A stretch of DNA of 64,000 nt from Thermoplasmata archaeon (GTDB lineage Archaea > Thermoplasmatota > Thermoplasmata > Lutacidiplasmatales > UBA184), in assembly GCA_022750155.1 (NCBI GenBank), contig JAKIWG010000006.1, positions 14,339-78,338 on the forward strand. Reading direction: 5' to 3'. Below are positions 22,808-57,497 of this stretch, one piece after another. The translations under genes and the position numbers were made by a program. The notes under the pieces were generated by a model. It was not told where the DNA came from, did no database searches, and was given only the letters and a program-made list of their open reading frames with translations. The stretch's first letter is position 1, and each line of letters begins with the position of its first letter.

Positions 22808-25621
22808 TCAAGGAACCTCGATTCGCCCCGAGGGGGTTCCATCGTGGGCCGCCTCTGAACGATCCGAAGCCCCGCCCGGTGCGGATTCGGGACCGGCGTG
22901 ACCGCCGAGGCTCCCCGTGATTGGACGCGCCCATGGGGTGGTCGGCGGGGGGCTCTTCCCCGACCGCTTCCGCCCCAGGGGCCCGAAGACGAACCATGCC
23001 ACCGCCACCCCGACGACCAGGCCGCCGGCCACCAGGAGAATCGACATTGTACTGATCCCTCCAGCCGAGGAGCCGCTCGTCGGGCTCTGTGCGTACACTA
23101 TGGTCACCTGGACGGTCTGGCCCTGGACGTAGATCACTCCGGCCGCAACGACCGCCAGGTAGCCAGCCACTTTTCCCGCGAGGTAATTGTACGACCCATT
23201 CGGGAGGGCGGTGACGACGGAGCTCCCCAACCCTCCGAACACCGTCGAACCGAGGACGATAGACCACTGGGTCCCCACGGCGAGCCCATACTCGGTGAAG
23301 GTGACCGGGAACAGAAACGCCGTGAACAGAACCAGGATTGTGATGTTGGTCCTTTCGTCCAGATACGGGCCCGCCGCGGGCTCGGCGACGGTGTACCCGG
23401 CCACGGTAGGGATCCGGAACTGATAGGTCGCACCCGGGCCGTTCGCTTGGGGAATCACGATGGTCAAAGCGGGCGAGGTGAAGGTCTGGCCGTTGAGTAC
23501 TACGGACCACGGGAAGTTGTGGAGGCCGCTCGCAGTGAACGTGAGGGTGTAGCCGAACCACAGGGTGGTCAGCGGATATCGGTCGATGTTCGAGGCGTTG
23601 ATCTCAAGGGGGCTGTCCACGAGGCCGTCTGGGTTCGGCCAGACCTGGCCCGGACCCGAGTAGAGGTCGGGACCCGTGTGATTCCCCCAGTAATTCCCCC
23701 CTTCGGGGTAGCCGGCGTCCCAATGGACCACTTGCGCCGAAGGAGGATTCGACCATCCCGCATCCCCTACGAAGTTGTTGTGGTACACCCAGACTCCGCT
23801 GTTGCCATCGACCATGAAGCCTACCTGGTCGTCGTAAAACCAGTTGCCAGCCGCGGTCGTGTTGACATCGTCGACGAGCCTCAGTCCCATGGTCGAAAGC
23901 GAGCCGTTGTTGTTCAGTAGCTGGAGGTCCGTGCAGTTCGAAATGGCAAGCGCGTCCCCGACATGGGTGGCATTGTTCTGATCGATGACACTCGCAGACA
24001 CGAAGGTAGCGAGGATCCCGGTCCCGTTCGCCTGCTGGGTGAATCCCCCGGGATTGTACTGAACGGTGAGGCCGGAGGAGTGATTGAGCAGCAACCCCAC
24101 GTTGCCCGCGTGGTCGATGGTGTTGTTCTCGACCACTGCCGAGTTCACCCCAGAGAGGTTGACCGCCGAGTAGCCTGCGCGGGAGTCGAGGTTGAACTCG
24201 AACACCAGGTTCTGCGTTGAATCGGCCTCGATCCCCGCATGGTCCGCACCGGACACGTTGTTGTTTTCGACGGTGGCCTGGCTATCGTCAGATAGCCAGA
24301 CGGCCGCGGGGAGGCCGGCCGAACCAGAGAAATCGTTGTAGGTCACCCTGAGGGTGGAACTGAGGGCGTCCTGGAACGCAACGGAATCCCCTCGCGCCGC
24401 GTTTCCCTCCACGCGGACGTTCCGGTCGCTGCACATCGATAGGGCCGACGAGGAGGTTCGGTTTCCATTCAACAATAGGTTCGACTGCACGGTGACGTTC
24501 GACGAGAACCCAACCCAGGTCGCCACCGAACGGAAAGAAGAGAGGTTGTTCGAGGCCACCACCAGGTTCGTGGTGTTCCCGACCATGACCGCGTGCTGAG
24601 CCCCGGTGAACTGACTGGACGTCAGGCTGACGTTGAGGTCGTGTTCGAGATATGCGCCGGTGGTGAATCCGGAAAAGGTCTCCGAGGTGAACGTCGCCCC
24701 CGTGGTGCCGAGGATGGCTATCCCCTCGATTCCCCCGCTGCCGGTGTTCAGCGATCCGGAGACGGTGTTCCCATTTTCGACGTGTATGGCCATCTGGCTC
24801 AGCGTCAGCGTGTTCGATCGGACGAACGAGAAGGAAACACCCTTCTCAACAATCCCGTGACCAGTCGAGGACAGTTCGTTGGCTATCAGGTTCACATGGT
24901 CTGACCGGAGCACCTCGACCCCCACCGCTGAACCGTTCGCCTGATTCCCCGTGATAGACACCACAGAGGAATCGACTATCCCTATCGCGTTCCCGCTCGA
25001 GTTGGAAAGCACATTGTTGAGGACGCTGACATTGACGTCACCGCCATAGGTGGTCCCGTTCATGCCGGAGCCTGTATTCCCCACCACGCTGAGGTTGACG
25101 GAGTCCTCGGCGTCGACGGACCACCCGGCTCCAGTGAGATGATTTCCGGTTACGACCGCCCCCTGCACCGCCTCGAGTAGGATTCCTGTGGTGGTGGATT
25201 CGACGGAGAGGTTCTCGACGACGAGCCGATCGACGTTGAACCCGATGAAGGCCGCATCCGTGCCATTGACTTGGGTCAGTGTCATTCCATTCCCGTTGAG
25301 CACGCTACCGTTCCGTTCGTCGAGTATGGACCCTGTGAACGACGCGGTCAGAGTGTAGGTATGACCCGCTACCTGAATCGGTGCGGAGGCGTTGCTCACA
25401 TTGCCGTCCGGCAGAATGATCGTCCCGTAGGTCGAAGGATGAATCACGGGCTCGGAGGAAAGCGCACGGGGCCCCGGGGGGTCGGGACCTTGCGGCGATG
25501 TGACGACTCGCAGGGGCTGAAAAGGGGCTGAACCGGACGGGACTTTCGTCCAGGTGTGACCGATCCCTCCCAACGCCAGGGAGGCAAGGATGAGGGCGAC
25601 CACAATCGTCGGGGGTCGCAT
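22808..25621 (-). CDS. NosD/CASH parallel beta-helix surface glycoprotein with C-terminal anchor
   Basis: Signal; many N-x-S/T beta-helix turns; YHNNF, GGNYW, DRYPL; thermopsin-tail-like VTFTEYGL..GT.WS repeats; C-terminal TM. Confidence 0.85.
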   Translation of the reverse strand: MRPPTIVVALILASLALGGIGHTWTKVPSGSAPFQPLRVVTSPQGPDPPGPRALSSEPVIHPSTYGTIILPDGNVSNASAPIQVAGHTYTLTASFTGSILDERNGSVLNGNGMTLTQVNGTDAAFIGFNVDRLVVENLSVESTTTGILLEAVQGAVVTGNHLTGAGWSVDAEDSVNLSVVGNTGSGMNGTTYGGDVNVSVLNNVLSNSSGNAIGIVDSSVVSITGNQANGSAVGVEVLRSDHVNLIANELSSTGHGIVEKGVSFSFVRSNTLTLSQMAIHVENGNTVSGSLNTGSGGIEGIAILGTTGATFTSETFSGFTTGAYLEHDLNVSLTSSQFTGAQHAVMVGNTTNLVVASNNLSSFRSVATWVGFSSNVTVQSNLLLNGNRTSSSALSMCSDRNVRVEGNAARGDSVAFQDALSSTLRVTYNDFSGSAGLPAAVWLSDDSQATVENNNVSGADHAGIEADSTQNLVFEFNLDSRAGYSAVNLSGVNSAVVENNTIDHAGNVGLLLNHSSGLTVQYNPGGFTQQANGTGILATFVSASVIDQNNATHVGDALAISNCTDLQLLNNNGSLSTMGLRLVDDVNTTAAGNWFYDDQVGFMVDGNSGVWVYHNNFVGDAGWSNPPSAQVVHWDAGYPEGGNYWGNHTGPDLYSGPGQVWPNPDGLVDSPLEINASNIDRYPLTTLWFGYTLTFTASGLHNFPWSVVLNGQTFTSPALTIVIPQANGPGATYQFRIPTVAGYTVAEPAAGPYLDERTNITILVLFTAFLFPVTFTEYGLAVGTQWSIVLGSTVFGGLGSSVVTALPNGSYNYLAGKVAGYLAVVAAGVIYVQGQTVQVTIVYAQSPTSGSSAGGISTMSILLVAGGLVVGVAVAWFVFGPLGRKRSGKSPPPTTPWARPITGSLGGHAGPESAPGGASDRSEAAHDGTPSGRIEVP

Positions 25622-25846: not shown

Positions 25847-25894
25847 TGCATCGTTAAGTCATCGGAGTGGTTGTTCCGGCTCCCGGGGAGCCTC

Positions 25895-26911
25895 GTGGAA
25901 GGACGGAAACTGCAACTGGCCGGCGGCTCGACCTACGTGGTCTCGCTGCCCAAGAGGTGGGTCACGAACGCTGGGCTGAAGGCCGGCGACACGCTCTTCC
26001 TGGAGACCCCCGCCGACGGTGCAGTGGTGGTCCGGCATCACGTCGTAGACAAACCCGCGGTCCGCCGGAAGGTTTTCCACGAGAAGGGGGAGGAGGCACG
26101 GGAACACCTGCTCCGCAAGCTGATTGGTGCGTACGTTTCCGGGTTCGGCCTCATCGAGGTCCGCTTCCCCTCCGAGCGGGGGCCTTTCGTCCGCCGCGTG
26201 GCGAGAGAGTTCTGCCGACTCGTGATCGGCCCGGAAGTGATCGAGGAAAGCCGGGGCAGCCTGGTCATCCAGGACCTCTCCGACGCCACCGAGCTCAGCG
26301 CCGAGAAGTGCCTCCGGCGGATGCACCTCACCGTTCGAGCCATGCTGGAGGACGCCATCCTGGCTCTCAAGACGTCCACCTCGGCCCTCGCCCATGACGT
26401 CGCCCAACGCGACCAGGACGTGGACCGACTGTACTGGATGGTCGCCAAGCAGTACCACCTGACCCAGACCTCTTCCAACGCCGGGGCGGATCGGTCCGCC
26501 TACCTGGCCGGCCACAGCTATCGGTTGGTGGCGAAGCTACTGGAACGGATCGGCGATCATGCCGAGCGAATCGCCGGCACCTTCTCCATACTCACGACCG
26601 GCAAGGCGATCGATCCGAAGCTGACCAAGGACCTCGATGAAGCCACGGCGTCTGCCGTCGCGATTCTCGACAAGGCGTTCACGGCGTTGCTTCAGGGCGA
26701 CGTCGACGGTGCCAACGATGCCATCGACGATCGGGCTGAACACCAACGGCTGATCGATGCCCTCTCCCACCGGGTGGCCACCCGCAAGGGCGAGGAGCTC
26801 CTCGCACTCGGCACCGTGGTGGACAGCCTCGGCCGAACCGCCAGCTATGCGGCCGACATCGCCGAGCAGGCGATCGATCTCGCGGTTCTCATGACCCCGG
26901 AAGCGGGCTGA
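25895..26911 (+). CDS. phoU: AbrB-PhoU phosphate regulator (archaeal type)
   Basis: RKLQLAGGSTYVVSLPKRW (AbrB); RDQDVDRLYW, LERIGDHA, SLGRTASYAADIAE (PhoU repeats). Confidence 0.92.
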   Translation: MEGRKLQLAGGSTYVVSLPKRWVTNAGLKAGDTLFLETPADGAVVVRHHVVDKPAVRRKVFHEKGEEAREHLLRKLIGAYVSGFGLIEVRFPSERGPFVRRVAREFCRLVIGPEVIEESRGSLVIQDLSDATELSAEKCLRRMHLTVRAMLEDAILALKTSTSALAHDVAQRDQDVDRLYWMVAKQYHLTQTSSNAGADRSAYLAGHSYRLVAKLLERIGDHAERIAGTFSILTTGKAIDPKLTKDLDEATASAVAILDKAFTALLQGDVDGANDAIDDRAEHQRLIDALSHRVATRKGEELLALGTVVDSLGRTASYAADIAEQAIDLAVLMTPEAG

Positions 26912-26953
26912 ACGGAATCCTCCGTCCTGTCGAAAGCGCCAGGGACCGGTGGG

Positions 26954-28039
26954 CTATCCATCGGATTCGGCCGTGGTACCGGTTGAGCCTCTGGCGGATG
27001 TCGGGGACTGGGACGTCCGGCGGAGGAAGGAGCGTCGGGCGGGCGGAGGCGTCGAGGCCGGCCCGGGAGCGGTCCCCCCAGAGGTCGGCACCATGTTTTC
27101 CTCGGTCCCCTCGCCCGAGGGACGCTCGGACTTGCGCGCGGCAAGCGCCGACCTGACGATCTCCCCGTCGACGCGATAGGCGCGGTGTTCCACCCCGTAT
27201 TCGATCGACAGGTCCGCGATCTCAAGAATTCGGCGCGGATTCCCTCCCGCGGCCTCGGCGATGATCGCGACCGCTTCTTTGTCGAATGGATAGAGCGGGT
27301 CGATCTCCTCGACCACTCGCTTGCCGAGCAGCTTCTTAGCGAGGAGCAGGGCCGCCTCATCGGCGGTCATTTTCGGCACGAAGAACGTCCGGTTGATCCT
27401 CGAGGCCAGCGCAGGCCGGTTCTTGATGATCCAATCGAGGTACCCCTGATAGCAGCCGAACATCACGAGCACACCGGGCTTGATCGAGTCGAACACCTCT
27501 TGGAGAGTTTTCCCGAATGCATCGAGCTCCGGTGTCTTCGACAGGTTATGGAGGTCGTTGAGCAGGAGAACCGCCGGTGCGTTCTCATTGAGAGCCAGTC
27601 CGATGGTCTTGCCGGCCTGAATCGGGTCGTACTTCTCGTCGGAAACCTTCTGCAGCGCGGTAACCTCTCGAAACCAAGCCGGATAGCTGAACCCCTTGGG
27701 AACCCCCGCGAGCTTGGCAGCCTTCAGTATCTCGCCCGCGAGCCCCCGAAGGATCCAGTTGGTCTGAGAGGTCACGTCGAAGTAGACTGTGAACGTCTTT
27801 CTCTCGCGCGCCTCAGCGGCCGTGAGGAGGAGGCGCTCGGTCTTCCCTGTCCCGTGGGAACCGACGATGGCGACGACCACCCGATTCTCCCGCTCCCAGA
27901 TCTCGTCGCGGATTGCCTGCAGGTTCTGGTCGATGTCCAGATTGACATGATACACGCCGATGTCCTGGAGGCTCTCGCTAGCCAATTCCCGAAACGGGTT
28001 GCTGGTGAGGCCGTATCGTTCGAAGGTCGAGATCGGCAT
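26954..28039 (-). CDS. ExeA/GspA-like AAA+ ATPase
   Basis: YGLTSNPF N-terminus; Walker A GSHGTGKT; Walker B variant LLLNDLH; ALASRI; AGGNPRRI. Confidence 0.72.
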   Translation of the reverse strand: MPISTFERYGLTSNPFRELASESLQDIGVYHVNLDIDQNLQAIRDEIWERENRVVVAIVGSHGTGKTERLLLTAAEARERKTFTVYFDVTSQTNWILRGLAGEILKAAKLAGVPKGFSYPAWFREVTALQKVSDEKYDPIQAGKTIGLALNENAPAVLLLNDLHNLSKTPELDAFGKTLQEVFDSIKPGVLVMFGCYQGYLDWIIKNRPALASRINRTFFVPKMTADEAALLLAKKLLGKRVVEEIDPLYPFDKEAVAIIAEAAGGNPRRILEIADLSIEYGVEHRAYRVDGEIVRSALAARKSERPSGEGTEENMVPTSGGTAPGPASTPPPARRSFLRRTSQSPTSARGSTGTTAESDG

Positions 28040-28053
28040 GGAACGACCGTGGG

Positions 28054-28683
28054 TCAGAGGACCCGCCTCCGGAGGTCGATGGCCAGCCGCTTGCCATCGA
28101 ACTCGTAGTAGATGTTGCGGTCGATGAACTTTCCGTCCATCCACTTCGGGATGCGCAAGTACCTCACAATCCCCTCCGGCCCCTCCTTGCTATGGAACTG
28201 GATAACGCCGTCGGCGAGGTGCATGGCGACGGCCTCGGATTGGGCCTCGAACATGCCCCGGTCCGTGGCCAATACGATCGTAGTTCGCTTCTCGTGGCAG
28301 AGCGCGCGAAGGCGGCGAACGAGGGCCGCGAAGCTAGGCCCGGGCAGTTCAAGGGTGAGGAAGGAGAACGAATCGACGGCCAATAGACCCCCATTCGCCC
28401 CGAACTCTCCCAGATTGTCGAGTGCGTCCCGCTCAAAGATCTCGAGCTTGGGTTCTCCCCACGGGTCGAGCTTCCCCTCCGTCACCAGGAGTTGCTGCAA
28501 CTCCTCCCGGTCCCTGGAGATCACGAATGTAACGGGATGCTCCTGCCGTAGGGCGGCGAGAGCCAACTTGCGCACGAAAAAACTCTTTGCTCCGTCGGCC
28601 CCGGACTCGATGACCACAAGACGCGCGTCGGCAAGCTCAGGAATGATGGTGTCGAGGCCGGGAACCTCGACGGGAATCCCCAT
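28054..28683 (-). CDS. FlaH/KaiC-like RecA-fold protein with degenerate P-loop
   Basis: VPGLDTII; SGADGAKS; LAVDSFS; HLADGVI; RYLRIPK. Confidence 0.78.
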   Translation of the reverse strand: MGIPVEVPGLDTIIPELADARLVVIESGADGAKSFFVRKLALAALRQEHPVTFVISRDREELQQLLVTEGKLDPWGEPKLEIFERDALDNLGEFGANGGLLAVDSFSFLTLELPGPSFAALVRRLRALCHEKRTTIVLATDRGMFEAQSEAVAMHLADGVIQFHSKEGPEGIVRYLRIPKWMDGKFIDRNIYYEFDGKRLAIDLRRRVL

Positions 28684-28748
28684 GCGGCGCGGAAGGGTGC
28701 ATGGCCCATAAGGCTGGCATCGGTAATGTATGAGTCTCCCCGGGTATC

Positions 28749-28762
28749 TACGCAAACTATGG
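28749..28762 (-). promoter_or_regulatory. Candidate operator in the divergent FlaH-like/pilin promoter
   Basis: Reverse strand reads CCATAGTTTGCGTA. Confidence 0.45.
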
Positions 28763-28801
28763 TGGGGAGCTACTTTTACTCACCGAGCCCGTGGTTCGGC
28801 C

Positions 28802-29611
28802 ATGTCCAAGTTTCGTCACGATTCCCGGGCCCTATCAGAAATCGTGGGGTCCCTCATGCTCGTCCTCATCGTGGTCGTTGCCGCCACCGCGTTAGCGGTG
28901 TTCGTTCAGAGCTACCAGAAGAACCTGCAGGCGGAGCAGGCATTGGCCCAAGCGAAGAGTTTGGAGTCGTTGAAGGTCCTCCGAGTGGCCCCAACCGAAA
29001 ACGGGACGAACGGAACGTGGGCGACCCTGAATTTCACCGTCGCGAGCCTGTACGTGAACCCGTCGACGATCACCGGAGTGAGCATCAACAACATGCCCGT
29101 CAGGAACTTCACCGCGCTCCACCTCAACCTGGCCTCTGGGAACTGGACCGCGGAGGTCGTCGCGGCGGGGGGGCAGTTGACGCTCTACCCCAGGGAACAG
29201 GTCTACCTCCAGGTCGACGGGCAGGGCGGGAACCTCTCGTCGTTCTACTCCCAGTCGTTGAGAGTGCCCATCTCGGCGTCGATCAGCGTCCAGATCCTCA
29301 CGGCTTACCAGAATGTCTTCTCGGGGTTGTTCATCCCCCCGACGGCGATCGCTCTCGTCCAGACGCTCCAGACCTGGAACTCGAGCGCCATGAGCTACAA
29401 CCAGACCCCCCTGCTCGATGGAAGCAATTCATTCCAGCCAGGAAATGGGACGATTGTCGCGTGGTCTTGGAACATCACGCCGGGGAATATTCTTCTGTTC
29501 GGTGAGAAACAGGTGGCGCGGATGTTGAATTCGGTGACACACTACACTATCCGGTTGACGGTAACGAACGCCGAGGGGCTACAGGGCATCGACTCGATCA
29601 GGTATGTCTGA
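28802..29611 (+). CDS. Archaeal type IV pilin with C-terminal PKD-like domain
   Basis: Class III signal RA|LSEIVGSLMLVLIVVVAATALAVF; ESL motif; LDGSNS...IVAWSW...YTIRLTVT. Confidence 0.88.
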   Translation: MSKFRHDSRALSEIVGSLMLVLIVVVAATALAVFVQSYQKNLQAEQALAQAKSLESLKVLRVAPTENGTNGTWATLNFTVASLYVNPSTITGVSINNMPVRNFTALHLNLASGNWTAEVVAAGGQLTLYPREQVYLQVDGQGGNLSSFYSQSLRVPISASISVQILTAYQNVFSGLFIPPTAIALVQTLQTWNSSAMSYNQTPLLDGSNSFQPGNGTIVAWSWNITPGNILLFGEKQVARMLNSVTHYTIRLTVTNAEGLQGIDSIRYV

Positions 29612-29695
29612 CGGCAACCTTTCCCGAAGCGGGTTCAGCCATCACTGGGACCGCCGACCTGGCCGGACTGGCGCTTTCACAGGAGCCGCCGGACC

Positions 29696-31132
29696 CTAGC
29701 CGGGGAACACGACCGCGAACGAAATCGCAGTGGCGGCCATCAGGGCGAGGGAGTGCAGAAGGCCGTAGCGCGCCTTACCTTCCGTGAAGGCTCCGATGAT
29801 TACCCCGGTTCCCATCGAATTGATGAGCATCAGGTCGAAGAACCGCTGCTTCAGGGCCGCCGGACTCAGTCGGGGGACACTTGCCGCCGAAACCCCGCCG
29901 GAGCCGGACGCGCCGGCACTATTGAGCGGGTTTCCGTTGAGGAAGCTGATGTTGATCGACCCGAGCGTGGGAGCGATGAACAACAAGGAAAAGAGCACTG
30001 CCATCAGGACGCCGAAGGCGATGTACAACACGGCCACGGGCAATACGAGTTGGTTGTTGCGCTCGATCTCGATCTTGATGAAGTCGTCCATGTCCTTGGC
30101 CGCGCGGTAGACGACGACGGAGGTTTCGCCTCCCACCGCCGAGGCATCCGAAATCAACCCTGCGTATCGGTTGATGAGGGCGCTTCGCATCGGAGTCACC
30201 ATCGTCTGCAGGACCACGTCGAAGGGGCGCCCCATCCGGATCCCATCCGCGGCGATCCGCAGGTCCTTGCGCATGATGTTCCCGCTGGTCTTCGCGAGCT
30301 CTACGATGCACTTCGCCGGGTCGATCCCGCCCCGCATGGCGTCGGCCATCTCGAACAGGAACTGGGCGAATGCACGCTCGTACGTACGTCGTCGACGTTT
30401 TTCCCGACGGGCGTCCATGGCGAACGCCAGAAGCCCGATGAAGAGCCCGATGATGACCACGTACTCAGGGGCGAGCAGCGGCTCGCCGGGTGTTCCGGTG
30501 ACGAAGATCAGACCGATCATGACAAAGACGAACGCCGCCACGGCGGGGATGTAGAGTACGATGTACTCCTTCTGGATCGGGTGCGTCGCGAAATACTTGT
30601 GGAACGTGAACCGGCGGGTTCGCTTCAGGTAGAGCACGTAGCCCCCCGCGGCCGCCGCCACGACGGCCGCTCCCACCCCGATTTCGAGCAGGAGTGCCCG
30701 GCTGTTGAGGACGACGAACGGGTTCGGCGGGGGGACCGTCGTATTGATGGTGAAACCCCAGGAGTACTCCGCGTGGTTTCCGGCGGAGTCGGTCACGTCG
30801 ACGGTGACGGTGTGGTTTCCCGGCTGGAGCTTGAGGACCGCCGGGGGGGTGTAGCTGATCTCGCTCGCGGTGATCACCGTGCCCTCGATGTTCGTCACAT
30901 CGAGCCCATCTACGATCATGGTCACTCCGACGGGAAAGATGCGGCCGGCGCTGTCGGTGTACGTCGCCGAGATGTTGGGGGTCTGGGTGTGCGAAATGGC
31001 TGCCGGCGCCGGGTTCACCGGAGTGATGATGATCGGGCCTGCCGCTGCGCGCGCACCCTGGGCATTTTGTCCGGCGAGGAGCAGGATGATGAGAAGGGCG
31101 AGGAGCAGCCAGGACCTTGCCATGGGATTCAC
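29696..31132 (-). CDS. TadC/FlaJ-like platform protein with N-terminal extracellular Ig-like domain
   Basis: Signal and Ig domain (PNISATYTD..GNHTVTVDVTDSAGN..WGFT); GspF domain FLFEMADAMRGG...GGET; GLLH C-terminus. Confidence 0.85.
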   Translation of the reverse strand: MNPMARSWLLLALLIILLLAGQNAQGARAAAGPIIITPVNPAPAAISHTQTPNISATYTDSAGRIFPVGVTMIVDGLDVTNIEGTVITASEISYTPPAVLKLQPGNHTVTVDVTDSAGNHAEYSWGFTINTTVPPPNPFVVLNSRALLLEIGVGAAVVAAAAGGYVLYLKRTRRFTFHKYFATHPIQKEYIVLYIPAVAAFVFVMIGLIFVTGTPGEPLLAPEYVVIIGLFIGLLAFAMDARREKRRRRTYERAFAQFLFEMADAMRGGIDPAKCIVELAKTSGNIMRKDLRIAADGIRMGRPFDVVLQTMVTPMRSALINRYAGLISDASAVGGETSVVVYRAAKDMDDFIKIEIERNNQLVLPVAVLYIAFGVLMAVLFSLLFIAPTLGSINISFLNGNPLNSAGASGSGGVSAASVPRLSPAALKQRFFDLMLINSMGTGVIIGAFTEGKARYGLLHSLALMAATAISFAVVFPG

Positions 31133-32091
31133 TCCGCGCGGGCGTATGCCATCGAAATCAGGATCGTCGTCATCCCCACCGAAAGTGGGACCAGTCCGAA
31201 GGTCAGCAGCAGAAGGAGGGCATTGGCGTCCAAGCCCCCCACGGTGCTGCCGAAGGCATCGATGAGGAACGCCCCGACCGCGATCATGAGCACGCCGATC
31301 AGGACGAGACTCGAGTACATGTCGACGTACGTCTGAAGGCGCTCGATGAACTCCTTCTGGACCGAACGCTTGAGCTTCAGGACGTCGTCCGACTTGTTCC
31401 GAAGGTACTCGTCCAGGTTGCCCCCCTGGTGGATCATGTTCCCGAGATCCCAGAACGACTCCCGGAGCGATTCGGACGGCGACTCCTTCGCGGTTTCGGC
31501 CAAGGCCGTGATGAGATCCTTCCCCTGAATGTCGGTCTTGTAGACGATCTTCTGGAACTCAGCGGTCATTGCCGGGTCGTGGTCCCTGCGGGCCATCCTG
31601 CGGACCAGCTCGATAGGGGACATGCCCGTGCTGGCCATGACCGAGAGTTCGCTCAACGTGAACGGGAGTTCGCGCTCTAGCTGACCCTTGCGATTCGATA
31701 CCCGCGTCCCCACGAGGCTCTGAAAGCCTCCCACGACGGCGACGGCGGTGAGCCCGGTAATCCCGCCCACATACTCGTACCAGGCCGGTGACGGCACGAG
31801 CAGGAGGAAAAGAGGAACGGTCACCGCCGCCGTGACCGCGACCGCAATGAGCGTGGTGACGAGCAGTACGGAACGATGCATCCCCGGAGTGGCGTGGACG
31901 CCGGCCTGTCGAAGTCGGTCCGCGAGGATCTCCGCATCCTCACCCCGGTCGAATCGTTCGCCGAGATGGCGATAGCAGAAGGCGCGGTACCTCCGCAGGA
32001 ACCGTTCCTGGGCGGTCGAAGGGGCCTCACCACCGAGGCCGACGGCCTTCCCTTCCTTCGCCGATACCGAAGTGCGCCTGAAGATGTTCAT
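31129..32091 (-). CDS. TadC/FlaJ-like (GspF) platform protein
   Basis: LERELPFTLSELSVMASTG; GKDLITAL..A..SPS; GGNLDEYL; ATGA coupling with neighbours. Confidence 0.9.
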   Translation of the reverse strand: MNIFRRTSVSAKEGKAVGLGGEAPSTAQERFLRRYRAFCYRHLGERFDRGEDAEILADRLRQAGVHATPGMHRSVLLVTTLIAVAVTAAVTVPLFLLLVPSPAWYEYVGGITGLTAVAVVGGFQSLVGTRVSNRKGQLERELPFTLSELSVMASTGMSPIELVRRMARRDHDPAMTAEFQKIVYKTDIQGKDLITALAETAKESPSESLRESFWDLGNMIHQGGNLDEYLRNKSDDVLKLKRSVQKEFIERLQTYVDMYSSLVLIGVLMIAVGAFLIDAFGSTVGGLDANALLLLLTFGLVPLSVGMTTILISMAYARAE

Positions 32092-33872
32092 CGACCGAGC
32101 GCCTGATTCTCCAGCTGGCGAAGGGCACCACTCGGATCGACGTAGTACTGAGCGATCGCGCGGCTGACGTCCTTGTAGTAGGTCATGTTGAGGCGGCTCA
32201 TCAACTCCAGATAGGTCGCTTTGCGGCGAACCTCTGCATCGAGGGAATCGAGGTCCTTTCCTGTCAACTGGGCGATCTTCTCCAGGACGAAGCTTCGCCC
32301 CAGGTAGGTCATCGTGTCTTCGGAGGGGGCCCAACGGAACACCTCGTTCGTGAGCAGCTCGTTGGTCACCGCATCCACTTCCAGAACCTCGGTGATGCTC
32401 ATCAGTCGGCGAACGCGAGCATTCTTGACCGCCACCTGGGCAGGGAACGCCACGGTGTCAAGGGCCTGGAAGAGGACCCGAGGGATGTTCATCGGCTCGT
32501 TCTCGATCCGGTGGAGGAGCTCCGCGATGGAACCGGCGTGGATCGTAGACATCGAGGCGTGACCCACCGAGATCGCCTGGAAGAGCGTGAACGACTCCGC
32601 CCCCCGGACCTCCCCGACGATCACATACTCCGGTCTCTGCCTCAGCGCGGCGACTAGCAAGTCGAAGAGTGTGACGCTCCCCATCGCCTTGGCCCCGCCG
32701 CCGGAGATTCCTGACGCTCCGCCGGAGATTCCCGAGGCCGCACCGCTCGACATCCCGTAACCGGTCCGCGCAACCGACTGGATCCAGTTCTGATGGTCGA
32801 TGTGGATTTCCGGTGTGTCTTCGATGGAGACTATCTTGTCCTCGGGCCGGATGAACATGCTGATGGCGTTGAGCAATGTCGTCTTGCCGCTTGCCGTTCC
32901 CCCGGAGATGAGGATCGACCGGTGGTGCTCGACCAAGGTCCAGAAGTAGGCGAGCTCGAGAGCGGAAGCCGAGCCAAAACGCAGGAGATCGATGGGAGAG
33001 ACCGGGTCGTAGGAGAACTTACGAATGCTGAACGTCGAGCCTTTTCGCGTCACCTCCGTTCCGAGGGTCAGGTTGATCCTGCTGCCATCGCGGAGCGTGG
33101 CATCGAGGATCGGCTGGTAGATCGAGATGTGCTTCCCCGAAATCTGTGCCAGTCGGAAGATGTACTTGTTCAGCTCCAGATCGCCGGTGAAGTTCACGTT
33201 GGTCTTTACGGAGCCAAAGACGCGGTGGAACACGTAGAGGGGCGTGGCTGGACCGAGGCAGCTGATGTCCTCCAAGAACGGATCGCGTAACACCGCGTCC
33301 GTCCTCCCCAGGCCGACGAACTCCCGCTGGAGGTAGTACAATAGCACGGGCCGGCGCTTTTCCGAAACGTCGATATCATAGAGATCCAGTGCTGCGAGGA
33401 ACCGCCCCCTGAGGTAGGCCCGCAACTCCGGGGATTGCTCTAGGCTCTGCCCCTCGGTCACCGGAAGCTCCTCCTGGGCCATCAGCGCCTCCATCTTGTC
33501 GCGGATCCGGCCGATCGTCTCGAACTCTTGCCCCTTCAACGTCGGCTCGAGGACGCTGTATTGGAACTCGCCGTCCCGCTCATTGAAGACGATATGGACG
33601 AACGCGTAGGGGGGGTTCACCGGGTAGGTGATGTCGACCGCCCGGCGGTCGGTGACCAGCTGTTTTCGCATGTATCCCAACTCCGCCTGGACGAGCATCT
33701 TGTCGGCGACCACGTTTTTCTTGACGAAGAGGGAGTCCAATGCGGCCGATTCCCGGCGGCGGGTCGCCAAGTCCTTCGGCTTGAACTTCGAGAGGTCTAC
33801 GCGCGGACGTGGGGGAAGGTTTCGGTCCCGCGTATCCGCGCTGGACGTGGAGGGTGCCCCTACCGAATTCAT
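32088..33872 (-). CDS. Type IV pilus assembly ATPase (FlaI/TadA/VirB11 family)
   Basis: DPFLEDISC; GSTFSIRKF; GGTASGKTT; SIEDTPE; ALRQRPEYVIVGEVRG; GH...STIHA. Confidence 0.95.
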   Translation of the reverse strand: MNSVGAPSTSSADTRDRNLPPRPRVDLSKFKPKDLATRRRESAALDSLFVKKNVVADKMLVQAELGYMRKQLVTDRRAVDITYPVNPPYAFVHIVFNERDGEFQYSVLEPTLKGQEFETIGRIRDKMEALMAQEELPVTEGQSLEQSPELRAYLRGRFLAALDLYDIDVSEKRRPVLLYYLQREFVGLGRTDAVLRDPFLEDISCLGPATPLYVFHRVFGSVKTNVNFTGDLELNKYIFRLAQISGKHISIYQPILDATLRDGSRINLTLGTEVTRKGSTFSIRKFSYDPVSPIDLLRFGSASALELAYFWTLVEHHRSILISGGTASGKTTLLNAISMFIRPEDKIVSIEDTPEIHIDHQNWIQSVARTGYGMSSGAASGISGGASGISGGGAKAMGSVTLFDLLVAALRQRPEYVIVGEVRGAESFTLFQAISVGHASMSTIHAGSIAELLHRIENEPMNIPRVLFQALDTVAFPAQVAVKNARVRRLMSITEVLEVDAVTNELLTNEVFRWAPSEDTMTYLGRSFVLEKIAQLTGKDLDSLDAEVRRKATYLELMSRLNMTYYKDVSRAIAQYYVDPSGALRQLENQALGR

Positions 33873-33920
33873 CGGCAACACCACTCTGCTCCCCAAGATT
33901 AAGCGATGGCCACGGGAACT

Positions 33921-33934
33921 CCATAGTCTACGTA
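33921..33934 (+). promoter_or_regulatory. Candidate operator in the divergent ATPase/pstS promoter
   Basis: CCATAGTCTACGTA. Confidence 0.45.
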
Positions 33935-34106
33935 ATTCACGATTCTACCGGAACCTCGTACCAGACATACGGTAACGTCCCGAATTTACCTCGAGGACCG
34001 GGTTCTACTTCGGCGACGGCTATGAGGCAATATTCGGTTCGATCGACCGCAGAGAGGCGCACGACTAGGTCGCGAGTCCCCCTGCGGAAAAAAAGGGAAG
34101 GAACGA

Positions 34107-35324
34107 ATGAAGGCGAGAGAGATTAGCCGACAGACAAAGCGCCGGAACTTCCGGAAGCTTCACCAGAAGACGGAAGCTGTTTCCCCGGTGGTCGCAACGT
34201 TGATCCTGATCCTCGTTGCGGTCGCCGCGGCAGCGGCCCTGTATCTCTGGTTGAGCGGGTGGCAGGCCGGCATCACCAAGGGAATCGGTTCGCCGAACGC
34301 GCAGTACAGCATTACGATTGGCGGCAGCACGACGGTCTACCCCTTTGACCAGACCATCGTGCCTTGGTTCGAGCAGAACAACTCGAACGTCGTCGTTTCG
34401 GACAACCCCGGGGGCTCGGGCGCGGGCATCCTCGCGGTCTGCGCTGGCCAGGTTGACATCGGAGCGGCGTCCCGAGCGATCACCGCGACCGACATTGCTG
34501 CGTGCCCGGCACTGCAGAACGCAGTCCAGACGCGCATTGGCATCGCTGCCATCGTCTCGATTGTGTCGAAGACCAACACTGTGGGCTTCACGGCCGCTTC
34601 CGCCATGGCGCAGAGGGAACTCGCATCCATCTGGCAGACCAACGGTGGCGGGAACCTCAACCTCGCCGGAATCCCGGTCGCTGGCGGCAGCTACGGACTG
34701 AAGGCGGGGGCCCCCTCGGGAACCGCCACGTGCCCGAACGGCGTCGGACCCTGCTACCTCTGGTCGGACGTTGCCACGAACTACGGAGCCGTCAACTGCG
34801 AGGGCCTCGTTGTCACGGCCTGCACGTTCTCGGCCTCGGCAAGCCCGATCCACCTGTGGGACCGCGCTGACAACAGCGGAACCGAAGCGAACTTCGCGGG
34901 CAAGCTGCTCGGCCAGGGCAAGTGCGGATCGGATCAGCAGGTCCAGAGCTGCGGTATCATCACCAGCAACTCCGGCGGCGGATCTGCCACCGGCAACCCG
35001 GCGGTCACGGCGGCGGTCGCGGCGGACCCCGTCGGACTCGGGTTCACCGACATCGGTCAGATCGGAACCAGCACCTTCGCGCTCGGCTTCGAGAACAACA
35101 GCCAGGCGGCTCCGGTCTTCGCGACCACCACGACTATCAAGCTGGCAGCGAACGGCCCGATCGCCGCGCCCTATGCGGGCGCGTACGGCGGCTGGACCCC
35201 CCTGGAGTACATCACGATTGGACCAGCGACCGGAGAAATCCAGCGCTTCATCCAGTTCGCGATGGACCCCAATGTGAACCAGCTCGCGACCGCCTCTAAC
35301 GGGTACATCAGCGTCTACGCGTAG
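34107..35324 (+). CDS. pstS: PstS-family phosphate-binding protein with class III (pilin-like) signal peptide
   Basis: EA|VSPVVATLILILVAVAAAAALYLW; GGSTTVYP, GSGAGI, DIGAASR, RADNSGT PstS motifs. Confidence 0.9.
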   Translation: MKAREISRQTKRRNFRKLHQKTEAVSPVVATLILILVAVAAAAALYLWLSGWQAGITKGIGSPNAQYSITIGGSTTVYPFDQTIVPWFEQNNSNVVVSDNPGGSGAGILAVCAGQVDIGAASRAITATDIAACPALQNAVQTRIGIAAIVSIVSKTNTVGFTAASAMAQRELASIWQTNGGGNLNLAGIPVAGGSYGLKAGAPSGTATCPNGVGPCYLWSDVATNYGAVNCEGLVVTACTFSASASPIHLWDRADNSGTEANFAGKLLGQGKCGSDQQVQSCGIITSNSGGGSATGNPAVTAAVAADPVGLGFTDIGQIGTSTFALGFENNSQAAPVFATTTTIKLAANGPIAAPYAGAYGGWTPLEYITIGPATGEIQRFIQFAMDPNVNQLATASNGYISVYA

Positions 35325-35861: not shown

Positions 35862-36713
35862 ATGCAGCGAACTTACCCCAGAGAACCGCGAGCGGGTCGA
35901 GACGCCGTCAAGCCCGGGCGTTGGGTCTCGGCCACGAGCACCACCGCCTTCGCCGTGACGCTCCTTCTGCTGGTCGCGCCCGCGACGCTGGGCGCCCACG
36001 CCGTGGTCCTGACCGCCCCGTATTCCGGGGCGAAGACCACCTCCTCCGAATCCTTGTCGGTTTCCGGCTGCGCGCACGCCGGGGTCCCCACGAGGGGCTA
36101 CTTCCACGGGAGCACCGGGATCGGGGGTCTGCGGGTCTGGAGCACGTCGCAGAGTTGCTCGGCGGGCTACGGGTACGGGTCGACCTCCTCGACCTCGTTC
36201 ATCTCCACGGTCCCCGTCACGCTGGCCCACTCGAAGGCCACCGTGGTCGCCGTCGTCCTGCTGCGGGCATGGGTGGCCGCCCACCTGACGCCCGGGACGT
36301 GCACGACGGGAAGCGGGAACTATTCGTCCTGCTCCGAGAGCGCGTATGCGAGCCTCTACGGGTACGTCTACCTGGCTGACATGACGAGCGGGGCGACGTG
36401 GTACCCCGCCAACTACCTCCTCGGCACCGCGCAGAGCATTTACCAGGGCTACTACTGCTACCTCGGAAACTGTTCGAGCTACACGAGCAACTACACCGTG
36501 CCGTTCCAGACGAGCTCCTCGACCTCCCTGACGATCAACGTCACGGGAGCCACGACGACCGACAGTTTCGCCCTCGTCGTCGACTTCAGCAGCTACGCGG
36601 ACTCGTACGTGAGCGCGTACGGCGCCACGCTCTCCGGTGCCAAGGCGTCGGCCACCGTCAACGCGGCATCCTCCGGAGAGCACATCGACCTCGCGTCGAT
36701 CACAATATCCTGA
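35862..36713 (+). CDS. Secreted Ser/Thr/Tyr-rich beta protein
   Basis: Signal; LTAPYSG; Cys pairs; TTTATA box at about 35780. Confidence 0.8.
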   Translation: MQRTYPREPRAGRDAVKPGRWVSATSTTAFAVTLLLLVAPATLGAHAVVLTAPYSGAKTTSSESLSVSGCAHAGVPTRGYFHGSTGIGGLRVWSTSQSCSAGYGYGSTSSTSFISTVPVTLAHSKATVVAVVLLRAWVAAHLTPGTCTTGSGNYSSCSESAYASLYGYVYLADMTSGATWYPANYLLGTAQSIYQGYYCYLGNCSSYTSNYTVPFQTSSSTSLTINVTGATTTDSFALVVDFSSYADSYVSAYGATLSGAKASATVNAASSGEHIDLASITIS

Positions 36714-56408: not shown

Positions 56409-57497
56409 CTATGCGACGGAAGCAGGCGCCGCGAGCGCCCTGCCCTCCCCCTTGCGGGGGGCCGTCGCCGGGACCTCCCGGTTCTCGACGGCGTGGTTGA
56501 TGGCGATCTCGGCGAGGTCGCTCGCGTACGACGCGCTCCGCTCCAGGCTCTCGAGGACGTAGGCGAGGCTGACCGCGAGCCGCCCCCGCTTCGTGGAGAG
56601 CTCGCGAAGGATCTTCTCCCGCTCGCGGGTCACGCGGTGGGCGTGGTCGACGACCGCATTGGCGCGGGCGATGTCCTTCGTTTCGAGGGCATCGAGCGCT
56701 TCCGAGAGCGTCGACGAGGCCTCCGCGGAAAGGGCGTCGAGCTCCCCGACGAGCGAGGGAGGCGGCTTTTCCTTCCCGAGCATGGCGACGGTATCCGCGA
56801 TCCGCACCGCGTGGTCGGCGATGCGTTCCAACACGCGGGAAGCGAGCAGGTAGGTCGAGCACTCCGGAAGGGTGAGGCCGAGGCTCGTGAGCATCCGTGC
56901 GTCGCGGAGGGCCGTCGTGACCTGCTTCTGTACGAACCAGTGCAGTCGGTCGACCTCCCAGTCCCTCTCGACGACGTCGCGGGCGATCGATTCATCCTGG
57001 GCACGGAACGCGGCCATCGCGTCGGACTGCATGGCGCGGACCATCTGGTGCATCCGCCGGATCACCGAGGGGATCGGGAGCGGGTTGGTGCCGATCACGT
57101 CCTGGAGCACCACCGCGTCCGCCGTCTCCTCGAGGATCTCCGGACCGATCATCCGCTGGGCGAAGGACCGCACGACGTCGCGCGTGTGCGGGCTCATCCG
57201 GGCCGGGGTCCGCACCTCGAGGAGGGGCGCGCCCGCGATGTACTCGGCGATGAGGATCCGGAATAGGTGGTCCTCGTTCATGTCGTTGGTCACGTGGACG
57301 ACCCGCCGGGTCGATTCGGCCCTCGGACCCTCCTCGGCGTAGACCGCGAGCGACCCGTCCGAGCGAGGGGTGAACAGCAGCACGTCGCCTGCGTGCAGGC
57401 CGCGGCTCACGACCCAGGTCTTCGGGAGGGAGACGATGAACGTGGAGCCTCCCGTCTTCTGGATCCGGCGCCCGTGGAATCCCCCCGTCGTTCGCAT
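56409..57497 (-). CDS. phoU: AbrB-PhoU regulator, second paralog
   Basis: RRIQKTGGSTFIVSLPKTW; RDWEVDRLHW; LERIADHA; ESLERSASYASDLAE. Confidence 0.92.
   Translation of the reverse strand: MRTTGGFHGRRIQKTGGSTFIVSLPKTWVVSRGLHAGDVLLFTPRSDGSLAVYAEEGPRAESTRRVVHVTNDMNEDHLFRILIAEYIAGAPLLEVRTPARMSPHTRDVVRSFAQRMIGPEILEETADAVVLQDVIGTNPLPIPSVIRRMHQMVRAMQSDAMAAFRAQDESIARDVVERDWEVDRLHWFVQKQVTTALRDARMLTSLGLTLPECSTYLLASRVLERIADHAVRIADTVAMLGKEKPPPSLVGELDALSAEASSTLSEALDALETKDIARANAVVDHAHRVTREREKILRELSTKRGRLAVSLAYVLESLERSASYASDLAEIAINHAVENREVPATAPRKGEGRALAAPASVA

Follow-up and report, generated by a model that had tools for sequence, protein, structure and literature searches.

A pilus locus encoding a pilin-signal PstS and an AbrB-PhoU regulator in Thermoplasmata: a probable bindosome-like system for phosphate scavenging

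Binding proteins of ATP-binding cassette (ABC) transporters that carry a class III signal and a pilin-like helix are known from the Bas system of Sulfolobales (BasABC pilins, BasE and BasF), for which a dedicated machine of the FlaI/TadC type has been proposed to be needed for functional surface display (PMC13705601, PMC4858521, PMC3047682). This Sulfolobus bindosome is the only known case in which binding proteins have been tied experimentally to type IV filament machinery, and its binding-protein genes lie apart from the genes of the machinery. In this study, we analysed a 64,000-nucleotide stretch of high-GC archaeal DNA from a Thermoplasmata archaeon (hereafter the window; positions 14339-78338 of contig C38 in assembly G000, GCA_022750155.1), in which a PstS-family phosphate-binding protein with a pilin-type N-terminus (hereafter pilin-PstS) is encoded within a pilus locus that also holds a gene for an AbrB-PhoU regulator. 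Synteny, distribution, fold and neighbouring transporter genes lead us to regard the locus, with moderate confidence, as a bindosome-like system of acid-soil Thermoplasmata, accessory and dedicated, in which a type IV filament or pseudopilus scavenges phosphate.

The general idea of this reading is already known from Bas and from PMC13705601 (PLoS Genet 2026), the main text of which proposes that binding proteins bearing a class III signal are widespread and functionalize the type IV filaments of archaea for substrate scavenging. According to the same text, such proteins mostly sit with ABC transporters, and their links to specific loci need validation. The locus in the window agrees with that proposal, as far as its main text goes, in the general idea, the canonical class III cleavage sites and the type IV filament machine, whereas the present analysis defines one particular locus together with its ligand family, its regulator and its link to the transporter. 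The words "phosphate" and "PhoU" are absent from the main text of PMC13705601, whose S9 Fig and tables may list PBP_like_2 proteins. Phosphate and PhoU are likewise unmentioned in the main text of PMC4858521 (Makarova et al. 2016), whose supplementary tables could list the locus, and the Lutacidiplasmatales paper (PMC9287336) mentions neither pili nor pst. Neither our literature searches nor the main texts of these three papers yielded an account of a pilin-signal PstS or of a locus like this one; supplements could bear on the point. A phosphate-class binding protein inside a dedicated pilus locus with PhoU appears to be the new element.

The comparison with the Sulfolobus Bas system made in the first-pass annotation holds as a functional analogy and fails as orthology, since the NCBIfam scores of the locus ATPase (BasE model, 179.7 bits; cut-off 1000) and of platform protein 2 (BasF model, 17.8 bits; cut-off 1300) rule out that the locus is a Bas ortholog. 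The ligand is a sugar in Bas and, by prediction, phosphate here; the gene of the binding protein belongs to the transporter operon in Bas but to the pilus locus here; and Bas has three small PilA-type pilins, whereas this locus has one large Ig-domain pilin. Unlike Bas, the present locus also includes KaiC-like, AAA_22 and AbrB-PhoU genes, and its hosts are Thermoplasmata and Nitrososphaerales.

Genes were called from an open reading frame (ORF) listing combined with Pfam and NCBIfam profile scans, by which all eight genes of the locus (25871-35324) were recovered where the first-pass annotation had placed them. These genes, together with one promoter region, are as follows.

25871-26911 (likely start 25895), + strand: SpoVT/AbrB-PhoU fusion, putative phosphate-responsive transcription regulator (PF01895, PF04014)
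26954-28144 (likely start about 28039), - strand: AAA_22-type P-loop NTPase (AAA_22, 24.1 bits)
28054-28755 (likely start about 28683), - strand: KaiC/RecA-superfamily, FlaH-like ATP-binding protein (PF06745, 28 bits)
28730-29611 (likely start 28802), + strand: type IV pilin with class III signal, helix and two beta-sandwich (PKD/Ig-like) domains (Pilin_N, TIGR02537)
29696-31132, - strand: TadC/FlaJ-type platform protein 1 (T2SSF, 40.6 bits)
31129-32334 (likely start about 32091), - strand: TadC/FlaJ-type platform protein 2 (T2SSF, 49.2 bits)
32088-33896, - strand: FlaI/TadA-type assembly ATPase (T2SSE, 117.5 bits)
33897-34106, no strand: intergenic (promoter) region from which the ATPase operon and pilin-PstS diverge, with two conserved boxes at about 33919-33935 and 33996-34030
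34107-35324, + strand: PstS-family phosphate-binding protein with class III signal and pilin helix (PBP_like_2, TIGR02136, TIGR02537)

Pilin-PstS is laid out as a leader (residues 1-24) with predicted cleavage after A24, a helix (25-54), a flexible linker (about 55-68) and a type II periplasmic-binding-protein (PBP) domain (about 69-405). The class III-type N-terminus that had been noted for this PstS was confirmed as ...KTEA|VSPVVATLILILVAVAAAAALYLWL, where a charged leader and a small residue at -1 precede a hydrophobic helix, as expected of archaeal class III signals, and TIGR02537 (arch_flag_Nterm) scored 33.2 bits against a cut-off of 20. In a sequence search, the first 35-40 mature residues matched the pilus proteins Iho670 (5kyh) and 3j1r, and the N-terminal half of the protein also matched solved phosphate-binding proteins.

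The remainder of pilin-PstS was assigned to Pfam PBP_like_2 at 80.7 bits, above the cut-off of 27. An AlphaFold2 model built with 49 homologs (mean pLDDT 88.3) has a two-lobed binding-protein domain, which a linker of low confidence joins to a helix at 27-54. When this model was compared with the PDB by Foldseek, the first 49 listed matches were all PstS, PBP or DING proteins, for example 4jwo (E 6e-16), 1twy (TMt 0.80) and 4gd5, whose title names bound phosphate. In a profile alignment, the GGST, GGSGAG, DIGaaS and R-x-D-x-SGT motifs of the family correspond to ISGSTS, IGSSAG, EIGMASR and REDGSGT of 4gd5/4q8r; in the 49 homologs, G72, G73, S74, G102, G103, G107 and R253 are invariant, and conservation reaches 90% or more at T75, S122, D255, G258 and T259. 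We take the phosphate-contacting residues to be those assigned after the E. coli PBP literature, and Ser takes the place of E. coli Asp56 in pilin-PstS, as it does in 4gd5-type proteins. By model and motifs, the PstS part is a phosphate-binding-protein fold in which the binding-site motifs are kept, and phosphate binding is predicted.

In its type II fold and phosphate-site sequence motifs, pilin-PstS resembles the canonical PstS of E. coli (2abh/1ixh), C. perfringens (4gd5) and M. tuberculosis (PstS-1, 7dm1). It differs from them in having a pilin N-terminus in place of a Sec/lipoprotein signal or a plain transmembrane (TM) anchor, a large variable insert, conserved cysteine pairs and NCBIfam scores under cut-off, and also in its surroundings, since canonical PstS is encoded with pstC/A/B and none of these was found in the window or its assembly. 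The insert of the family is a highly variable Gly/Ala/Thr-rich segment of 0 to about 200 residues between the conserved blocks of the two lobes. Four cysteines (C112, C133, C273 and C282) are invariant in the family, which suggests disulfides.

The conservation of the locus was surveyed in 61 genomes in all, with a same-genus panel of 36 genomes and a set of 24 genomes outside the genus; one unpublished genome (G019) was counted in the tallies solely as a genome without the locus. In addition, 53 loci were obtained from a scan of one genome per species, in which loci were picked up by N-terminal peptide patterns, so that the pilin-type N-terminal motif is present in them by construction, and several of these loci are the same contigs as nine same-genus stretches. 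The order PhoU (+), AAA (-), KaiC (-), pilin (+), TadC (-), TadC (-), FlaI (-), PstS (+) recurs in the nine stretches wherever the contig permits, with the full order in L029-L033, and the AAA_22 and KaiC-like genes keep their position in the related loci. The order is kept although the locus proteins have diverged to 35-75% identity. The first-pass annotation had raised the prospect that pstS and phoU might be unlinked to the pilus genes in relatives; in the relatives searched, they stay with them, as the ATPase ortholog lies divergently upstream of pilin-PstS in 38 of the 41 Thermoplasmata-type loci whose upstream flank is 1.6 kb or longer, and the PhoU ortholog is present in 27 of the 30 loci where this flank is 9.9 kb or longer. 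Since the arrangement is conserved in dozens of related loci, it lies far beyond chance.

The distribution of the genes among genomes agrees with this linkage. Pilin-PstS (E<1e-30) was found in 11 of the 36 same-genus genomes and as one contig-end fragment (G029), and the ATPase ortholog (about 70-77% identity) in 12 of the 36; 11 of the 13 same-genus genomes carrying either gene have both, and the two mismatches (G020 and G024) are contig-end fragments. Save for one fragment (G024), locus ATPase orthologs are restricted to genomes with pilin-PstS. The 24 genomes outside the genus contained neither pilin-PstS nor the locus ATPase at that level. The locus travels as a unit.

The locus also repeatedly adjoins genes of the matching transporter. 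A canonical pst gene lies within the fetched stretch in 17 of the 53 loci, with its own separate PstS where the stretch shows it. Canonical pstS-pstC-pstA directly follows pilin-PstS in L044, L045 and L046; a canonical pstS lies directly downstream of it in L058, L071, L086 and L093, followed by other pst genes where the stretch allows; and pstB lies directly upstream of PhoU in G003 (L038), L047, L056, L059, L072, L075, L081 and L087. In G017 and G029, pstB is on the contig of the locus. The canonical PstS proteins of the relatives have plain TM anchors and E. coli-type motifs; pilin-PstS is a paralog additional to the operon PstS in these relatives. In the window itself, the statement of the first-pass annotation that pstCAB genes are lacking proved correct, because tblastn with the PstS, PstC, PstA and PstB of a relative gave no match there at E<=1e-3.

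Synteny, a shared patchy distribution, the phosphate-binding-protein fold and the adjoining pst operons support a link of pilus machinery, PstS and phosphate uptake. To this extent, the phosphate bindosome proposed in the first-pass annotation is upheld; cleavage, assembly, ligand binding and PhoU control are the parts of it that we infer. A PibD/FlaK-type peptidase would cleave the PstS precursor after Ala24, and the ATPase and platform would then pull the hydrophobic helix of pilin-PstS out of the membrane and build the protein, probably along with the Ig-domain pilin, into a pilus or a short pseudopilus. Carried on a flexible linker of about 14 residues, the phosphate-binding domain would capture phosphate outside the envelope, and the captured phosphate could be passed to the membrane-anchored canonical PstS and PstCAB. 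The AbrB-PhoU protein, an ortholog of regulators beside pst operons in other Thermoplasmata, may tie expression to phosphate status.

If this phosphate-scavenging filament or pseudopilus exists, it would represent a new strategy of phosphate acquisition in soil and a new function of type IV filaments. In the present case, the gene for a nutrient-class binding protein is part of a dedicated pilus locus with which it strictly co-occurs and which also has a phosphate-type regulator. In two archaeal phyla of acidic, phosphate-poor soils, the locus repeatedly adjoins the ABC transporter that matches the binding protein. The recent proposal that filaments are "functionalized" to scavenge nutrients thereby becomes directly testable, as a ligand family and a partner transporter can be named and both a cleavage site and a regulator are predicted.

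Several observations weigh against this phosphate-scavenging system, and they begin with pilin-PstS itself. The protein falls under the NCBIfam PstS cut-offs (TIGR02136, 81 against 206.6 bits; TIGR00975, 43.9 against 205), and its large variable insert spans about columns 200-400 of alignment A1. The leader is long (24 residues), with Glu at -2 in the window, and the globular head, at about 36 kDa, would make for a bulky filament subunit. In favour of the system, the same genome encodes a candidate class III signal peptidase, 6 kb from two other pilin genes (Arc_PepC_II, 32.3 bits, above the cut-off of 29.9), while its A24 domain stays under cut-off (17-23 against 26.5 bits). Cleavage of pilin-PstS by a prepilin peptidase, its assembly into a filament and PhoU control of the locus are predictions read from sequence, and no PhoU operator common to the locus promoters was found. 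In three of the 41 loci (L062, L070 and L080), no pilus genes precede the pilin-signal PstS, and a copy in L037 that has no pilin N-terminus is nested within the pilin-PstS group of the tree described below. Moreover, the compared genomes are close kin, so that the locus counts are not independent.

To these points is added the state of the assembly containing the window (2.13 Mb, 51 contigs, 93.7% complete), in which no transporter to take up the phosphate is visible. The best PstB score in it was 142 bits against a cut-off of 343, the best PstC score was only 23 bits, and tblastn with the PstS, PstC and PstA of a congener found no matches. The window's own gene is the only PBP_like_2 gene in the assembly, where a canonical PstS was not found, and profile searches for other phosphate routes (PHO4/Pit, Na_Pi_cotrans and Phosphonate-bd) found none of the three. 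PstB is present in 33 of the 36 congeners, and the three without it are 67-73% complete; therefore, an assembly gap is the likeliest, if unproven, cause of the missing pst genes, which would otherwise represent an unusual loss.

Among other explanations, the one that survives best is that the locus encodes an ordinary adhesion pilus and that PstS is the binding protein of the Pst transporter with a pilin-like N-terminus serving merely as an anchor, the neighbours being joined through a phosphate-starvation regulon, for example for attachment to phosphate-bearing particles together with uptake. Archaeal binding proteins are commonly held by an N-terminal helix, as is the canonical PstS of the relatives; the Ig-domain pilin of the locus could make a filament alone; and three loci have a pilin-signal PstS and no adjoining pilus genes, with AbrB-PhoU directly upstream of it in L070. 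The helix itself argues otherwise. In eight orthologs, 24 of the 25 residues of helix 25-49 are invariant at an overall identity of only 37-46%, which points to a constraint beyond simple anchoring, and a plain anchor would need neither this invariance nor the class III motif A|VSP that is common to the Thermoplasmata copies and those of Nitrososphaerales. In addition, the relatives examined already own a separate, differently anchored canonical PstS, and pilin-PstS shares the patchy distribution of the locus ATPase while two other FlaI paralogs occur in most genomes searched. We consider the anchor explanation fairly unlikely.

A pseudopilus resembling type II secretion, which would push PstS and perhaps other proteins out and release them with no standing filament, is less likely still. 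The same minimal machinery drives pseudopili, the accessory cytoplasmic NTPases (AAA_22 and KaiC-like) suggest regulated assembly, and the bulky head of PstS speaks against dense packing in a long filament. On the other hand, the locus has no conserved secreted cargo gene besides PstS, a membrane transporter would gain little from PstS that had been released, and this secretion scheme overlaps with the short-pseudopilus form of the explanation that we prefer.

In bacteria, the occupancy of PstS is sensed via PstSCAB and PhoU, and a phosphate-sensing pilin might similarly report to the KaiC-like protein, the AAA_22 protein and PhoU and thereby steer pilus assembly or expression. The strict conservation of two cytoplasmic NTPases and a PhoU-domain regulator in the locus speaks for such a sensor. 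It is nevertheless quite improbable, since the locus has no transmembrane signalling protein, the pilin helix has no cytoplasmic domain, and the repeated linkage to complete pst operons fits uptake better. Finally, although part of the conserved order among close-kin genomes may reflect recent common descent, chance or hitch-hiking with no functional meaning has very little to recommend it, because the order persists at 35-75% protein identity, a rearranged version with the same components lies beside pst genes in another phylum, and the presence and absence of the ATPase and pilin-PstS coincide, so that synteny and co-occurrence tests both disfavour it.

The locus in the second phylum bears on the origin of the phosphate-scavenging system. 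In Nitrososphaerales, L089 encodes pilin-PstS, a FlaI protein (51% identity), two TadC proteins, a CdvA-like protein, a 205-aa ORF and a Pilin_N pilin in an order that differs from that of Thermoplasmata, with canonical pstS-pstC coming after them, and L088 has pstA-pstB followed by pilin-PstS and then FlaI. In a midpoint-rooted tree of binding domains with the helices removed, the pilin-PstS proteins of both phyla form one group (89/81). Its sister is the operon PstS, with a TM anchor, that other Thermoplasmata families encode (98/97), and E. coli-type PstS is the outgroup. In those other families, AbrB-PhoU lies divergently beside TM-anchored pstS-pstC in L021, L024 and L027, that is, in three of the six pstS-pstC loci examined. 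This pattern fits a single origin in which the pilus gene set may have come to lie between phoU and pstS.

A more far-reaching picture, which we put forward only tentatively and hold to be rather doubtful as a whole, is that acid-soil Thermoplasmata and Nitrososphaerales build a phosphate-harvesting filament whose high-affinity PstS receptors would be subunits, polymerised by virtue of the invariant helix, giving a wider capture radius and feeding PstSCAB, and that it would have arisen once, by insertion of the pilus set between AbrB-phoU and pstS, and then spread by gene transfer. As a separate observation, the CdvA-like gene of L089 (L089:8006-8755, - strand; PF18822, 52 bits) encodes a coiled-coil protein and lies about where the Thermoplasmata loci hold the AAA_22 gene.

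Concerning the pilus genes, the Ig-domain pilin scored above cut-off with Pilin_N (26.1 bits) and arch_flag_Nterm (TIGR02537, 27.3 bits), and its PKD matches are weak. Its AlphaFold2 model (pLDDT 84) has a 47-residue helix at 8-54 followed by two beta-sandwich domains, and among its Foldseek matches, amid generic Ig-like ones, are 8fk7 (archaeal type IV pilus, TMt 0.60) and 9eq7 (archaellum, TMt 0.54). The N-terminus R[GA]|[LI][SA]E[IV]VGTLMLV is kept in its orthologs and differs from that of pilin-PstS. The Ig-domain pilin is a candidate filament subunit, and in the Pfam scan of the locus proteins no filament-protein family besides Pilin_N was found.

The assembly ATPase scored 391.9 bits with the FlaI model (cut-off 550), and it is about 70% identical to its orthologs, 51% to the Nitrososphaerales protein and 39-41% to two paralogs in its own genome. 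These paralogs are two tandem FlaI-like ATPase genes (G000:C43:20459-25617), which occur in most of the 61 genomes searched and appear to belong to the core type IV filament system of the lineage. Platform protein 1 is 51-62% identical to its orthologs in Thermoplasmata loci. Platform protein 2 likely starts at about 32091, overlapping the stop codon of the ATPase gene, as ortholog matches begin at about residue 100 of its ORF; its scores with ArlJ (53 bits), UpsF (40.8) and BasF (17.8) are all far under the cut-offs. An archaellum was rejected as a reading of the locus, given the scores with FlaI (391.9 against 550), ArlH (16.1 against 215) and ArlJ (53 against 550 bits). According to PMC9287336, archaellum genes are lacking in Lutacidiplasmatales. 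In a side observation, platform protein 1 has an N-terminal signal peptide and an Ig-like extracellular domain (Big_13, 25.2 bits, under the cut-off of 27), and in the Nitrososphaerales counterpart (L089:6642-8009) the Ig-like domain is apparently C-terminal, as judged from the translation only.

Two further NTPases had been described as an ExeA-like ATPase and a FlaH-like protein, and both names stand only in a broad sense. The first is ExeA-like only as a member of the wide AAA_22 family, where its 24.1 bits are under the cut-off of 27; it has the Walker A motif GSHGTGKT, and its Atlas neighbours are archaeal AAA_22 clusters. The second is a KaiC-family protein (PF06745, above the cut-off of 26.6) and FlaH-like only loosely, as the specific FlaH and ArlH models gave only 17.5 and 16.1 bits. 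For neither protein did a sequence search of the PDB return a match at E<=1.

The regulator of the locus matched PF01895 in two stretches at 76 bits, above the Pfam cut-off, and PF04014 (MazE/AbrB-type) at 31.3 bits. With TIGR02135, whose equivalog cut-off is 130, it scored 77.5 bits; an additional DNA-binding domain of the AbrB type marks it as an archaeal regulator type. The start at 25895 proposed in the first-pass annotation fits the alignment with the PhoU of a relative, which begins at residue 9 of the ORF at 25871. Its orthologs in related loci are 58-93% identical to it, and along its whole length the protein shares 37% identity (E 9e-76) with an AbrB-PhoU encoded divergently from pstS-pstC in another Thermoplasmata family. 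It has the same domain architecture as the archaeal AbrB/SpoVT-PhoU regulators beside pst operons, from which it differs in that its gene lies at the edge of a pilus locus. Among archaeal regulators of this type, TK2245 of Thermococcus appears in PMC7325993 as a chromosome-associated protein.

Separately, a second AbrB-PhoU paralog, 39% identical to the locus copy, is encoded at 56409-57497 (- strand) with no pst or pilus neighbours. The idea that it marks a decayed pst locus was dropped, since its neighbours encode a CarboxypepD_reg-domain protein and FAD/2Fe-2S oxidoreductases.

In the promoter region between the ATPase operon and pilin-PstS, a MAFFT alignment of the window and 24 related loci gave two boxes at 80% consensus, CCGTA...T.CGT and T.CGG..TCT..TTCG.....G..TAT.A. 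The second box, CGGNNTCTNNTTCG, has 8 matches in the window against 8.43 expected and is absent from the other locus promoters. A palindromic operator, CGTAG-N-CTACG, was considered and rejected, with one site in the window (1 mismatch) against 1.21 by chance and an occurrence within 300 bp upstream in 8 of the 24 related loci. As neither a palindrome nor a motif shared by the promoters was established, it is from adjacency and orthology that control by PhoU is suggested.

With regard to the origin of the sequences, public-record homologs of the window carry names of Thermoplasmata, including Candidatus Lutacidiplasmatales. No RNA run was listed among the runs with window sequence, the sole run being soil DNA with a 0.07 share of words. 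In genome G025, a second copy of the whole locus (L034, G025:C9:2500-20019) looks decayed: its ATPase, TadC2, AAA and PstS matches are in pieces, the ATPase has an in-frame TGA, and the PstS frame stops early in an Arg-rich tail. Two contigs of 2.7-3.0 kb (L069 and L085), filed as Acidimicrobiales and Acidobacteriaceae bacteria, encode an archaeal pilin-signal PstS and are probably mis-binned archaeal contigs.

Directly upstream of PhoU in the window, 22808-25621 (- strand) encodes a surface protein of 937 aa, of the NosD/right-handed beta-helix kind and with a TM segment at its C-terminus, which has paralogs elsewhere in the genome and a 37%-identical copy after pilin-PstS in L031. Downstream of pilin-PstS, 35862-36713 (+ strand) encodes a 283-aa Ser/Thr-rich, secreted-looking protein that has no Pfam match and at least five paralogs (26-34% identity) on other contigs.

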